DNA of 64,000 nt from an uncultured Clostridia bacterium (GCA_934133165.1 CAKPAW010000001.1:98756-162755), one strand, 5' to 3'; shown: positions 47,291-62,975, counted from the first letter of the stretch. Notes: generated by a model not told the origin, from the sequence alone. Numbers and translations: made by a program.

Positions 47291-48037
47291 TTAAGTATAT
47301 GATTCTATATAATAGTCTCCATCAATATTTGAACCCGAAATCGAACTACCTGAAATCGTTTTCAATTTAATAGTTACCTCTTCTTCAGTAGGATAAATAG
47401 TTAGTCCATCAAAAGTTGCACCAGTTACTGAATCTATAGTTATATTCTTTCCAGAACTTAAAGAAAAAGAGTTTGCACCATTAGCTTTAACAACCAATGA
47501 ACAATTATATCTATGATACTGCCAAGAAGAATGCTCATATACATTTGTAGTAATTTTTGTAATATATGGACCATTATTATTATCAATTTTCTCTCCTGTA
47601 ATTTTTTCCCCATTTATATATGCAGTTTTTCCTTCTGTTATATCTTTTGCTGTCGCTGTTGCATCTTTTGTTACTTCTTTTACTATTCCTTTTATATTAT
47701 TTGCAAATACAGCTGTCTCAGATGAAGTATCAGGTTTTATTCCTCCAGCTTCTTCTATTGCATTTGCTATAGCTGTTTTAAATTCTGTTAATTTTATCAT
47801 TGTATCATATGGCAAATTTTCTGAGTTTGAACCTTCTGTTTCTAATTGATAATATAATTCATTTAATTCTGTTTCTTCTTGTATCTTTGCAAGTTCTGTA
47901 TTTTCTTTTGCTTTTTTAGCAATTGTTATAATTCCATTATCACCAAGTATTAAATTGATACTTATTCCTGCTAAAATTATTAATACTATTATTGTTACTA
48001 CTAACGCAACTAATGTTACTCCTTTTTGATTTTTCAT
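47291..48037 (-). CDS. Prepilin-like protein, family member A (class-III-like signal KG|VTLVALVVTI, no Glu+5)
   Basis: Short basic leader, Gly, then an approximately 22-aa hydrophobic helix. The N-terminal 140 aa are about 90% identical to 62235-62975 and the 5' UTR is also conserved. The C-terminal region is divergent. Confidence 0.5.
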   Translation of the reverse strand: MKNQKGVTLVALVVTIIVLIILAGISINLILGDNGIITIAKKAKENTELAKIQEETELNELYYQLETEGSNSENLPYDTMIKLTEFKTAIANAIEEAGGIKPDTSSETAVFANNIKGIVKEVTKDATATAKDITEGKTAYINGEKITGEKIDNNNGPYITKITTNVYEHSSWQYHRYNCSLVVKANGANSFSLSSGKNITIDSVTGATFDGLTIYPTEEEVTIKLKTISGSSISGSNIDGDYYIESYT

Positions 48038-48242
48038 TTTCCTTTGTTCCTCCCTCTATTTTTACTTTAGTGTCTCCAAAAATTTGTTAAATTACGAAAC
48101 AATATTATGTTTATAAATTATTATTTTTAAGTATTATATTTATTCTTTTATAATTAATCAATATTATTTTCTATTTTTAGTAATAACGTTTTTACATAAA
48201 AATAAAATCTTAGCACTCTCACTAAGATTTCGTTTCTTTTTT

Positions 48243-49175
48243 CTATTTTTTTAATACTTCTTCTAAAATATTTTCAGCTGTAAGTCCAAAATATTCCATA
48301 AGTTCTCCTGCTTTTCCAGATTTTCCAAAAGTATCTTTAATTCCCATTCTAGTTACTTTACATGGATATTCCTCTGCTAACACCTCACATACTGCACTTC
48401 CTAAACCACCTATTATATTATGGTCTTCTATTGTTATTATTTTTTTAGTCTCTTTAGCACATTTTGTAATTAGCTCTTTATCTATTGGCTTTATTGTATG
48501 AACATCTAATACTCTTACATTAATCCCTTTACTTTCTAATTCTTCTTTTGCTTTTATTGCCTCTGCTACCACATCTCCTGTAGCTATTATTGTTGCGTCT
48601 GTGCCTTCTCCTATTTGAACTGCTTTTCCCATTTCAAATTTTTGTTTTTCTTCATATATAATAGGTGTTTCCATTCTTGATAATCTTAAATATACAGGTC
48701 CTTTTATTTTACTAATTTCTCTTACGGCCCATTTAGTTTGGACGTCATCTGAAGTACACATTACTGTCATGTTTGGAAGTGTTCTCATTAATGAAATATC
48801 TTCCAACATTTGATGTGTTGCTCCATCTTCTCCTACTGTTATTCCGCTATGTGTTGCGCAGATTTTTACGTTTAGTTTTGGATAGCATATGCTATTTCTT
48901 ATTTGATCATATGCCCTACCTGCTGCAAATACGGCAAATGTACTTGCATATGGAATTTTTCCACATGTAGAAAATCCTGCTGCAGTTGCCAACATATCTT
49001 GTTCTGCAATTCCCATATCAAAAAATCTATTTGGAAATTCCTTTGCAAATAATATTGTTTTAGTTGCAGTTGATAAATCTGCATCTAGTACCACTACGTT
49101 TTCATTTTCTTTTCCTAATTCTAATAATGCCTCTCCATAGCTTTGTCTTGTTGCTTTTTTTATTTTTTTATTCAT
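48243..49175 (-). CDS. Transketolase, C-terminal (pyrimidine-binding) subunit
   Basis: Split-transketolase B subunit. ATG at 49175 with an AAGGAGG RBS. Confidence 0.9.
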   Translation of the reverse strand: MNKKIKKATRQSYGEALLELGKENENVVVLDADLSTATKTILFAKEFPNRFFDMGIAEQDMLATAAGFSTCGKIPYASTFAVFAAGRAYDQIRNSICYPKLNVKICATHSGITVGEDGATHQMLEDISLMRTLPNMTVMCTSDDVQTKWAVREISKIKGPVYLRLSRMETPIIYEEKQKFEMGKAVQIGEGTDATIIATGDVVAEAIKAKEELESKGINVRVLDVHTIKPIDKELITKCAKETKKIITIEDHNIIGGLGSAVCEVLAEEYPCKVTRMGIKDTFGKSGKAGELMEYFGLTAENILEEVLKK

Positions 49176-49231
49176 TTTAACCTCCTTTTTAGAAGCATAC
49201 AACTCTATATTTTCAGTTGTATAATTTATTC

Positions 49232-60804: not shown

Positions 60805-60816
60805 TTTTCTTTTTTC

Positions 60817-62064
60817 CTATTCCATTATATTTTGTATTGCTTTTAATACTCCTAATTTTCCATATTCATATGTTAGTCCACCTTGCATAAATGCAATATA
60901 AGGCTCACGTATTGGTCCATCACAAGAAAGTTCTATTGAAGAACCTTGTGTAAATGCTCCTGCTGCCATAATGACTTGATCTGTATAACCTGGCATGTCC
61001 CATGGCATAGGAATTGAGTTTGAATCTACTGGTGATCCCATTTGTATTCCTTGACAATATTTTATTAATTTTTCTTTATCTTTAAAAATAATATTTTGAA
61101 CTATGTCTGCCCTTTCATCTTCTGCTTTTGGCTCTACCTCATAACCTAACTCTTCTAACATTTTACTTGCAAATACTGCTGTTTTTAAACTTGAAGCCAC
61201 AACTGATGGAGCTAAAAATAGTCCTTGTAAAATTGATTTATTAATTCCTAAAGTTGGACCAACTTCCTTTCCTTCACCTGGTGCAGTTAATCTTTGTGCA
61301 ACTAAATCTACTAAATCCTTTCTACCTACAACATATGCTCCGTTTGGTGCTATACCTCCACCTAAATTTTTTATAAGTGAACCTACTGCAATATCTGCTC
61401 CTACTTCTATTGGTTCTTTAGTAGTAACAAATTCGCAATAACAATTATCTATCATTATTATTACTTTTTTATCTATTTCTTTAATTAACCTTATAACTTT
61501 TTCTAGCTTATCTATTGTAATACTTTTTCTTGTAGAATATCCTTTAGAACGTTGAATTTCTATTAATTTTACATTTCCTTGTTTCAACCTTTTCTTTATT
61601 TTTTCATAATCAAAATCATCATTTATCAAATTAATTTGCTCATATTTTACATTATAAGATTTAAGTGATGCAGGATTATCTACAATGCCAATAACCTCGT
61701 CTAATGTATCATATGGTTTTCCAGTAATACTAAGCATTACATCATTTGGTCTTAAAAGTCCAAATAAAGTTATAGTTAAAGCATGTGTTCCAGAAATAAA
61801 TTGGCTTCTTACTAAACTATCTTCTGCCTTAAAAATTTCAGCAAATACTTTTTCTATTGTATCTCTTCCAATATCTCCATAGCCATAACCTGTTGTACTT
61901 CCAAAATGCATTTCTGAAATTTGATTTTCTTGAAATGCTTTTAATACTTTTAAGCTATTTTGTGTACAATTTTCTTCTATTTTTTTAAATATATTTTCCA
62001 CATTTTTTTCGACTTTAGTTGATAATTCTTCTATTTTTTTACTTATTCCAAACTCTTCGTACAT
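60817..62064 (-). CDS. Aluminium-resistance-family PLP-dependent protein (YnbB-like, Cys/Met-metabolism fold)
   Basis: Approximately 415 aa with characteristic SQFISGTHAL and GxxxK regions. Commonly found next to mutL in Clostridia. Confidence 0.75.
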   Translation of the reverse strand: MYEEFGISKKIEELSTKVEKNVENIFKKIEENCTQNSLKVLKAFQENQISEMHFGSTTGYGYGDIGRDTIEKVFAEIFKAEDSLVRSQFISGTHALTITLFGLLRPNDVMLSITGKPYDTLDEVIGIVDNPASLKSYNVKYEQINLINDDFDYEKIKKRLKQGNVKLIEIQRSKGYSTRKSITIDKLEKVIRLIKEIDKKVIIMIDNCYCEFVTTKEPIEVGADIAVGSLIKNLGGGIAPNGAYVVGRKDLVDLVAQRLTAPGEGKEVGPTLGINKSILQGLFLAPSVVASSLKTAVFASKMLEELGYEVEPKAEDERADIVQNIIFKDKEKLIKYCQGIQMGSPVDSNSIPMPWDMPGYTDQVIMAAGAFTQGSSIELSCDGPIREPYIAFMQGGLTYEYGKLGVLKAIQNIME

Positions 62065-62234
62065 TTATTTTCTCTCTCCTTTTCAATTACTTTTATATTA
62101 TAGCATTTTTGCATTTGTTATTCAACTAAATTCACCTAAAACATATCTACCTAATATCCTCCTTTGCACAAAAAACTTGCCTTATTGTTATAAGACAAGT
62201 TTTAAAACATATTTATATAAACTATATTTTTATA

Positions 62235-62975
62235 TTACTCTATACCACTTAATACTACATAATAGAATCTGCGATTTCCACTATTAATACCTGCCCCATT
62301 CCAATAATAAAAACTACAAGATGTACCAGTTAATTTCGCCGTACTAGGCATATTTACATATGGAGCCGAACTTCCTGATAAAGCTTCTGAACTTTTTATC
62401 AGTATTCTTGCATTATCTTCTAATGTATACGTATTTTTAAAGTTTATTGTTAATAGCTTATCTCCACCTGGATTAACAACTCCAGTGTCAATGTATCCCT
62501 CTTCTAAAATATCAATTGTTTTCTTATTTTTCCCAATAAGCAATTCCCCATTAACATATGCTGTTTTTCCTTCTGCTATATCATCTGCTGTAGCAGTTGC
62601 ATTTTTAGTTGCTTCTTTCAATATTCCTTTAATATTATCCGCAAATATAGATGTTTCTGCTGAAGTATCTGGCTTTATACCTCCTGCTTCTTCTATCGCA
62701 TTTGCTATAGCTGTTTTAAATTCTGTAAGTTTTGCTATTGAATCATATGGTAAATTTCCTGAACTTGAACCCTCTGTTTCCAATTGAGTATACAATTCAT
62801 TTAATACGGTTTCTTCTTCTATCTTTGCAAGTTCTGTATTCTCTTTTGCTTTTTTAGTTATTGTTATTATTCCATTATCTCCTAAAACTAAATTTATGCT
62901 TATTCCTGCTAAAATTATTAATACTATTATTGTTACTACTAACGCAACTAATGTTATACCTTTTTCTTTTTTCAT
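62235..62975 (-). CDS. Prepilin-like protein, family member C (KG|ITLVALVVTI signal)
   Basis: The N-terminal 140 aa and upstream 60 nt are near-identical to member A. Unrelated C-terminal domain. Confidence 0.5.
   Translation of the reverse strand: MKKEKGITLVALVVTIIVLIILAGISINLVLGDNGIITITKKAKENTELAKIEEETVLNELYTQLETEGSSSGNLPYDSIAKLTEFKTAIANAIEEAGGIKPDTSAETSIFADNIKGILKEATKNATATADDIAEGKTAYVNGELLIGKNKKTIDILEEGYIDTGVVNPGGDKLLTINFKNTYTLEDNARILIKSSEALSGSSAPYVNMPSTAKLTGTSCSFYYWNGAGINSGNRRFYYVVLSGIE

Follow-up and report, generated by a model that had tools for sequence, protein, structure and literature searches.

Type IV pilins (IPR012902, PF07963) begin with a short basic leader ending in Gly, followed by a hydrophobic alpha-1N segment of ~22 residues and a long N-terminal helix. 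Signals of this class III type are also carried by other proteins: the archaeal bindosome is made of sugar-binding class III signal proteins that are processed by PibD and lie outside pili, and the DUF1559 / H-X9-DG proteins of Planctomycetes and Verrucomicrobia form a massively expanded, dispersed prepilin-signal family with the canonical GFTLIE motif and a common C-terminal domain. A class III signal has Glu at the fifth mature position (Glu5) "often, but not always", and the tip-capping subunit of a pilus is characteristically without it (PMC10191384). Pilins of a modular type, onto which adhesive domains have been grafted, occur widely (PMC8179133), and in examples such as Streptococcus sanguinis PilB/PilC and CofB of enterotoxigenic Escherichia coli the pilin signal and helix act as the carrier of an unrelated C-terminal module with a predicted role in adhesion or ligand binding; CofB, which ends in a beta-sandwich as well, probably occupies the tip of the pilus. 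Here we analyse three genes, A, B and C, with a comparable N-terminus in a 64,000-nucleotide stretch of DNA from an uncultured Clostridia bacterium (GCA_934133165.1 CAKPAW010000001.1:98756-162755; hereafter the window). With moderate confidence, we interpret A and C as modular type IV pilin-like surface proteins of a very large family that is specific to a clade of uncultured low-GC gut Clostridia, and B as a separate small pilin-like protein.

Gene A (47291-48037, 248 aa), gene B (51466-51945, 159 aa, between divIVA and tRNA-Trp) and gene C (62235-62975, 246 aa, a paralog of A) all lie on the minus strand, and mechanical calling of open reading frames (ORFs) confirmed them exactly where the original prediction had placed three prepilin-like genes. 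Each protein starts with a basic leader that ends in Gly (MKNQKG in A, 48020-48037; MKNESG in B; MKKEKG in C, 62958-62975), as a class III signal does, followed by (I/V)TL(V/I)(A/T)LV(V/I)TI within a mainly hydrophobic stretch of 20-25 residues directly after the predicted cleavage site (VTLVALVVTIIVLIILAGISINLIL in A, with counterparts in B and C). In a six-frame scan of the window, the motif G-[FIVLM]-[TS]-L-[IVLM]-x-[LVIM]-[LVIMA] occurred at no ORF start other than these three, and one extra plus-strand match fell outside ORFs. At +5 after the Gly, A and C have Ala and B has Thr, so that none of the three carries Glu or Asp there, as had been reported from the sequence at the outset. The proteins do not have the features of an ordinary Sec-dependent lipoprotein or type I signal protein: no Cys lies within the hydrophobic segment or beyond it, the h-region is long (at least 22 residues) and an AxA-type site is lacking. 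Nor do the C-termini (A ...DGDYYIESYT, B ...PEVFTKI, C ...YYVVLSGIE) contain an LPXTG sorting signal.

The evidence that carries our interpretation comes from related genomes. One genome per species was scanned with a pattern built from A-type sequences (B-type sequences were left out as too divergent), giving more than 593 pattern matches and 382 matches confirmed by tblastn, from which 79 loci were kept. These loci are from metagenome-assembled genomes (MAGs) of uncultured Clostridia, Clostridiaceae or Clostridium, with one labelled Bacilli, and the guts sampled were those of humans (Hadza, Nepal and others), rabbits and mice. Sixteen of the 79 loci hold a complete type IV pilus operon, in which the family member is a small protein of 70-180 aa. 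The operon encodes, in this order, a PilM-like protein of 539 aa, two small membrane proteins, one to four pilins, a PilD-like protein, two minor pilins, PilB, PilT and PilC (Pfam scores: T2SSE+MshEN 345 bits, T2SSE 148, T2SSF 101, A24_N_bact 103 and, for the pilin, N_methyl 22.4). The operons were located by tblastn with the proteins of a relative; regular-expression screens for Walker A (GspE-type) and GxGD motifs missed them and were not used as evidence of absence. In 16/16 operons the gene that precedes the PilD-like gene by no more than 400 nt encodes the N-terminus MKNQKGITL(I/V)ALV(I/V)TI(I/V)VLLILAG..., with Ala at +5, and operon pilins with this motif score 22.3-22.8 bits against Pfam N_methyl (PF07963), above its gathering cut-off of 21.2. 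Compared by hhalign, the A family and the operon pilins match along the entire alpha-1 helix (71 columns) at a probability of 99.7% (E 7.9e-26). The shared N-terminus in 16/16 operons and the alpha-1 homology together indicate that the "non-canonical" motif is the normal pilin signal of the clade's pilus system, which supports the class III (prepilin-type) architecture originally proposed for the three genes; judged by this homology, A and C carry the alpha-1 helix of that system. The arrangement is like that of type IV pilins in that a PilD-like gene and PilB/PilT/PilC accompany homologs with this N-terminus, and unlike it in that Ile/Val+1 replaces Phe and Ala/Thr+5 replaces Glu, even in the pilin beside the PilD-like gene. 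MAGs CALXZX (L036, L033), CAKOSX (L067, L045) and CAKPIG (L027) each combine the operon with dispersed large paralogs bearing the same signal.

These operons also bear on the main alternative, in which the pilin-derived N-terminus of A and C now serves only as a permanent, uncleaved N-in/C-out membrane anchor, the coiled-coil or helical stalk and the hinge form a fibre, possibly trimeric, that holds a variable head, and neither pilus machinery nor a peptidase is used. We regard this as somewhat unlikely, given that the identical sequence stands on the pilin beside the PilD-like gene throughout the 16 operons and that the homology spans the whole of alpha-1, the filament-forming part of a pilin.

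The pilin-like family to which A and C belong is very much larger than the three-member family first described. A word-indexed protein search with A returned 1,305 significant homologs, of which none is named or has a Pfam domain, and an exhaustive search with its first 60 aa returned 21,324 representatives of 50%-identity clusters at E<=1e-3 (1,467 of them at E<=1e-10). At least five more paralogs lie beyond the end of the window: a fourth paralog (P0040) is on the window's own 411,220-bp contig, and in a co-linear European Nucleotide Archive scaffold with identical C and P0040, P0040 belongs to a five-paralog tandem cluster ~28 kb from C, past the window end. Other A-type paralogs (P0081, P0015 and P0009) are singletons beside the housekeeping genes murC/ddl, mraZ/sortase and recD2, and one MAG (CAKPKE) holds 21 family ORFs across its 11 loci. 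Dispersed singletons among housekeeping genes, at least 20 copies in some genomes and, for A, B and C, sub-threshold Pfam and NCBIfam scores are further differences from type IV pilins.

Across 124 distinct family ORFs, the residues Gly-1 (121), Ile/Val+1 (124), Thr+2 (124), Leu+3 (124), Ala+5 (119), Thr+9 (123), Gly+18 (117), Gly+26 (119), Asn+28 (112) and Gly+29 (122) are near-invariant. These counts are biased, since the loci had been fetched by the motif pattern and filtered by a regular expression, which left +5 and positions beyond +10 unconstrained. Independently of this retrieval bias, A's signal differs from those of other species with a synonymous divergence (dS) of 0.7-1.6 and a nonsynonymous divergence (dN) of 0.18-0.29, and codons 1-144 of A and C give dS 0.42 and dN 0.088. 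As dN is well under dS, the similarity is held by purifying selection and not merely by recent gene conversion, and the early suggestion of selection on the signal motif is thereby borne out. A plain membrane anchor would have no need of a near-invariant Gly-1, Thr+2, Leu+3, Gly+18 and G-x-N-G under purifying selection across species.

A and C share one N-terminal module and differ completely beyond it. Their proteins are 82% identical over aa 1-149 (122/149, E 1e-83, BLASTP), less than the ~90% over 140 aa given in the original prediction, and unrelated thereafter. The genes are ~86% identical over nt 1-430 and drop abruptly at ~nt 432 to the ~50% level of AT-rich background, so that the complete C-terminal divergence reported for the pair is upheld in both protein and DNA. 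In A the conserved module (aa 1-149, 47591-48037, minus strand) comprises the signal, alpha-1 and a helical stalk, and is followed by a variable beta-sandwich head (aa 150-248, 47294-47590); in C, on the same strand, the corresponding module is at 62529-62975 and the head, unrelated to that of A and in a different homology group, at 62238-62528. The boundary between module and head is marked by a hinge motif, GKTAYING in A (part of ...TATAKDITEGKTAYINGEKITG, 47609-47632) and at 62547-62570 in C, with the family consensus G(K/R)(S/T)A(W/Y/F)xxG; it is here that the DNA identity of A and C breaks off. This motif occurs twice in the window, in A and C only, which indicates that the window contains no silent head cassettes.

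The same division holds throughout the family. The N-module (aa 1-149) is kept in all of the best 120 of the 1,305 homologs at ~60-98% identity, and past the hinge the C-termini (median length 108 aa) of 114 proteins sharing A's N-module make up 49 groups without relation to one another, in agreement with the swappable C-terminal modules that had been postulated. Among the same best 120 of 1,305 homologs, the metagenomic homolog P0077 has Glu+5 (GITLVELVITI), the only acidic residue at that position. Replacement of the head at one locus between strains was not demonstrated, as P0081, P0015 and P0009 occupy different housekeeping sites. Members at one locus (L001) have coiled-coil-like stalks of ~170 aa between signal and hinge. 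The hinge region also matches the phage family phrog_38337 (A aa 113-156, E 2e-9, window 47540-47700; C aa 114-149, E 8e-5, window 62530-62640). A phage origin of hinge and head was considered and rejected: tblastn of A against 50,697 phage genomes was empty, as was a scan of viral contigs. The hinge match would suit a fibre-like design, and the L001 stalks too are compatible with an uncleaved stalk protein.

The 5' regions of A and C are also shared, as the original prediction had noted: ~100 nt upstream of the two genes are ~72% identical, and the 15-mer AATATTATGTTTATA is present in exactly two copies in the window (48101-48115 and 63036-63050) where none is expected by chance. These putative promoter/5'-untranslated regions extend over 48038-48140 for A, with the ribosome-binding site GGAGGAACAAAGGAAA directly before the ATG, and over 62976-63075 for C, both on the minus strand. 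Many paralogs in MAGs closest to the window (L001, L004, L006, L007 and L008) have the same region, ~95 nt with TTATAAACATAATATT ... TTGGAAAyACTAAAG ... GGAGGAACAAAAGAAAATG, upstream of them, and its conservation suggests a shared promoter or leader through which co-regulation would be possible. Promoter consensus matches in the A and C upstream regions were not above chance for AT-rich DNA, and an Rfam scan of the shared 5' regions found no RNA element, the window having four tRNAs only. A perfect 13-bp hairpin lies 3' of A (47171-47209, minus strand; the inverted repeat is 100% complementary, with a 13-nt loop) and is likely a terminator, which would make A monocistronic between transketolase and ftsE. 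Additional hairpins on A's other flank (48200-48235) and upstream of C (63351-63392) fit with independent transcription units. Neither an invertible promoter nor repeats suited to phase variation were found around A and C, where the only such elements are terminator hairpins and inverted repeats that are weak and AT-rich.

Predicted folds and domain content suggest what the heads might do. The head of A resembles CBM2 and sugar-binding beta-sandwiches. In 85 longer family members we found the Pfam domains LRR_5 (10), LRR_8 (5), Flg_new (2), GLUG (2), Big_2, Big_7, a GH5 cellulase with DUF285 and an FGE-sulfatase-like domain, which are typical cell-surface or adhesin modules; about three quarters of these members have no known domain. 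The A/C-type proteins are most likely a repertoire of surface adhesins, and a pilin-type N-terminus joined to an additional module that is not specific to pili is the plan of a modular type IV pilin. Unlike in described modular pilins, the carrier here is alpha-1 plus a helical or coiled-coil stalk and a hinge instead of a compact pilin head with a short linker, dozens of unrelated heads share a single carrier, the genes lie outside a pilus operon and most heads have no Pfam signature.

The nature of the passengers is relevant to a further alternative, that the proteins depend on the pilus machinery and are cleaved, but go no further than the membrane or a short pseudopilus, where, without a filament, they would display enzymes and binding proteins much as a bindosome or a type II secretion pseudopilus does. 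Passengers such as the GH5 cellulase with DUF285, the FGE-sulfatase-like domain and the many leucine-rich repeat (LRR) proteins would suit such a platform, and ~21,000 tagged 50%-identity clusters are far beyond what would be expected of true filament subunits. The archaeal bindosome likewise has a prepilin-type signal without Glu5 on varied extracytoplasmic proteins, including substrate-binding or enzyme-like passengers; it differs in being archaeal and in the family context of its peptidase, and we draw an analogy only and claim no homology. Some clostridial pilus systems have been reported to act in secretion (bioRxiv 10.1101/2024.11.04.621531). We nevertheless think a platform of this kind improbable: the relatives' operons hold a PilT-like retraction ATPase, which is typical of true retractile pili, and the idea overlaps heavily with that of modular pilin-like proteins and is not separated from it by sequence alone.

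Gene B belongs elsewhere. It aligns with A over aa 1-57 only (40% identity) and had been seen at first as a member that kept nothing but the signal helix. This does not hold, as B has its own narrow orthologous family of 47 homologs, nearly all of which measure 150-170 aa and keep 49-96% identity along their full length (the exceptions are a few fragments and one outlier at 32%), with invariant residues through the C-terminal half, for example ...YIIN.QSHT.YYPKG. The AlphaFold2 model of B is a confident "lollipop" in which aa 2-60 form one helix, and its best structural neighbours are type IV pilins. From this predicted fold, B appears to be a separate small pilin-like protein using the same kind of signal. 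We rejected the view of B as the second minor pilin of the operon left behind as an orphaned ortholog, as the two align over the signal only.

Several results weigh against a pilus-borne role for A and C. At the level of single proteins, A (19.0 bits) and C (15.3 bits) both score under the N_methyl cut-off and B has no match to this model, NCBIfam (including TIGR02532) gave nothing significant for A, B or C, and the AlphaFold2 model of A is poor (pLDDT 55) and does not establish a pilin head packed on alpha-1C. At the level of the genome, tblastn with the full set of type IV pilus proteins from a relative found no type IV pilus machinery in the window at E<=1e-5, in accord with the earlier statement that no prepilin peptidase, assembly ATPase or platform gene is nearby, and a canonical A24 peptidase matched the window with a best E of 2.3. 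The co-linear scaffold that extends ~45 kb past the C side of the window likewise has no peptidase, ATPase or platform gene; on the opposite side, matching by exact proteins reached only a short contig. In two relatives (L031:5650-18740 and L092:5924-20816) the gene order is rsmB, pilus operon, ROK, tktC, one or two small genes, ftsE and ftsX, and in the window (45344-52465) it is tktN-tktC-A-ftsE-ftsX, with A in the slot before ftsE, and upstream an M23 peptidase, GtrA, tRNA-Trp, B and divIVA, with no operon. The site occupied by the operon in these relatives thus lacks it in the window, which indicates that the operon was moved or lost in the window's lineage. MAGs with the largest expansions of the family (CAKPKE, CANQTX and CAKOVP) have no operon among the 79 retrieved loci. 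A search with the PilD-like protein of a relative placed no copy on the window's contig among the best 120 of 4,420 matches, a result of little power that is uninformative rather than negative. The missing machinery in the window and at the syntenic site, the expansions without a retrieved operon, and Ala in place of Glu5, the residue thought to drive docking into the filament, are all what an uncleaved anchor would predict.

The PilD-like protein of the operons adds to these concerns. It is represented by 130 homologs (for example L048:10518-11336, L031:9078-9893, L040:6633-7460 and L092:10001-10816) and matches the N-terminal A24_N_bact zinc-finger domain only (103-108 bits), with the catalytic domain PF01478 undetected even at E<=10. 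Among the 130 members, Asp126 (motif G-I-D) is the sole invariant candidate catalytic residue and no GxGD motif is present, the nearest conserved acidic residues being Asp176 (96%) and Glu205 (95%). Only the first 38 residues align by hhalign with a canonical A24 peptidase of the clade. The operon protein may be a strongly diverged or a non-proteolytic PilD; as it has no recognisable A24 catalytic domain, cleavage of the leader is not assured even in relatives that have the operon, a point that again favours a signal anchor. That canonical peptidase (L063:4158-4910) is encoded by a stand-alone gene (PF01478 70.9 bits, GFGDVKL) two genes downstream of two large family members, between a HAD-phosphatase-like gene on one side and Xaa-Pro aminopeptidase and efp genes on the other, and it indicates that a second, conventional type of peptidase exists in the clade.

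Two features of the operon pilins are also recorded here. The first minor pilin has an acidic residue at +5 (GxTGxD, once E; L048:11366-11791, L031:9906-10313, L036:11407-11853 and equivalents) where the adjacent pilin has Ala, which reverses the usual pattern of major and minor pilins and counts as a caution. In three operons (L040:6305-6526, L051:5769-5981 and L067:9998-10216) the PilD-like gene is accompanied by a pilin of no more than 70-73 aa, nearly alpha-1 alone, which recalls the truncated Geobacter-type pilins.

The stand-alone A24 peptidase could also be taken as a sign that A and C are substrates of a Tad/Flp-type or Com-type filament system, for example the Tad-like cluster of the gut order TANB77. 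The main lead is from the literature, in which a Tad-type cluster with pilin-like genes is described in uncultured low-GC gut Clostridia (PMC11680825); in addition, there are weak sub-threshold matches to TadE (E 0.005), ComGD, ComGF and ComGE, and to Flp1_like (E 0.39-0.42, far under the cut-off). A link to these systems seems highly improbable. The Flp motif G/xxxxEY is absent from A, B and C, which have no Glu5-Tyr6 and measure 159-248 aa against ~50-80 aa for a mature Flp pilin; every observed linkage between the family and machinery is to an operon of the PilM/PilB/PilT/PilC type, and no CpaF, TadB or TadC gene was seen in any locus.

If A and C are modular pilin-like proteins, as we favour, their biogenesis may be pictured by analogy with pilins. 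The basic leader would stay in the cytoplasm while the hydrophobic stretch of ~22 residues is inserted as an N-in membrane helix, and a prepilin-type peptidase would remove the leader after Gly-6. Alpha-1, by homology the same helix as in the relatives' operon pilin, would let the protein dock with the pilus machinery and the filament. A and C would most probably take the position of a low-abundance or tip subunit, and such a tip or minor role is the most economical because tip-capping subunits lack Glu5. The helical stalk and the hinge GKTAY(I/V)NG would then project the beta-sandwich head of ~100 aa, which appears to be exchanged among paralogs and strains. The repertoire of heads would correspond to a set of binding specificities, as the CBM-like fold matches and the LRR, immunoglobulin-like (Ig) and GH5 domains of relatives suggest. 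Each gene would be an independent unit with its conserved putative promoter/5'-untranslated region, and paralogs could in this way be co-regulated.

The remainder of the window is low in GC (~27% G+C) with sporulation and housekeeping genes throughout, as in a spore-forming Clostridia, and the neighbours previously named for A, B and C (ftsE/ftsX, transketolase, divIVA/sepF and mutL/miaA) were identified correctly. The MutL ORF (55824-58253) is 809 aa when called mechanically, with an N-terminal extension, and 762 aa in the co-linear scaffold, and this shorter call makes it probable that the true start is internal. A gene for a GGDEF-domain protein (6813-7925) adjoins one for a 796-aa protein (7952-10342; region 6813-10796), and the pair is kept in another locus (L018); the 796-aa protein has no Pfam match; judged by eye, its middle is of low complexity and its C-terminal part may be ParA/MinD-like. 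A Bro-N domain protein is encoded at the window start (301-1236) and on another contig (L091) lies beside a RhuM-family gene; it may be a remnant of a prophage or mobile element.

We found no description of the A/C family or its signal variant in a full-text literature search. The novel elements are the clade-wide Ile+1/Ala+5 signal, the single carrier with dozens of unrelated heads, the massive dispersed expansion, and the PilD-like protein without a recognisable catalytic domain. Compared with the DUF1559 / H-X9-DG family, the A/C signal is non-canonical and the C-terminal heads are mutually unrelated. The survey of modular pilins based on InterPro would miss A and C, along with other members whose scores likewise fall short of the signal model. 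Without a Pfam or NCBIfam match or a name, A/C-type proteins are invisible to current annotation, yet the tag is found on >21,000 clusters from human, rabbit and mouse gut metagenomes.

Because the signal has Ile+1/Ala+5 instead of Phe+1/Glu5, and the PilD-like protein keeps only its zinc-finger domain and one invariant Asp, it is conceivable, if rather doubtful, that in this clade the pilin signal has been turned into a general surface-display tag on tens of thousands of proteins, from those with adhesin-like heads and LRR proteins to a GH5 cellulase, and has co-evolved with non-canonical machinery. Lineages like that of the window may have moved or lost the pilus operon and yet retain the proteins with the tag; if so, tagged proteins without an operon would imply a new processing enzyme or function without cleavage. 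A Glu5-less pilin beside a PilD-like protein without a GxGD domain would test ideas on what is required for processing and for docking into filaments.

The surface repertoire of such gut Clostridia is of practical interest in view of findings in TANB77, an order of uncultured gut Clostridia in which a Tad-type pilus cluster with pilin-like genes is conserved, one protein stimulates TLR4, and pilin-like proteins are reported to stimulate dendritic cells and, in mice, to improve checkpoint immunotherapy (PMC11680825). The Tad-type machinery of that order differs from the PilM/PilB/PilT/PilC operon found in relatives of the window organism. If A/C-type proteins are pilus-borne or machinery-dependent adhesins, they would probably be a main route by which small-genome uncultured Clostridia attach to food particles, mucus and other cells, and, as adhesins with exchangeable heads, they would be an obvious target of host immunity and of phages.

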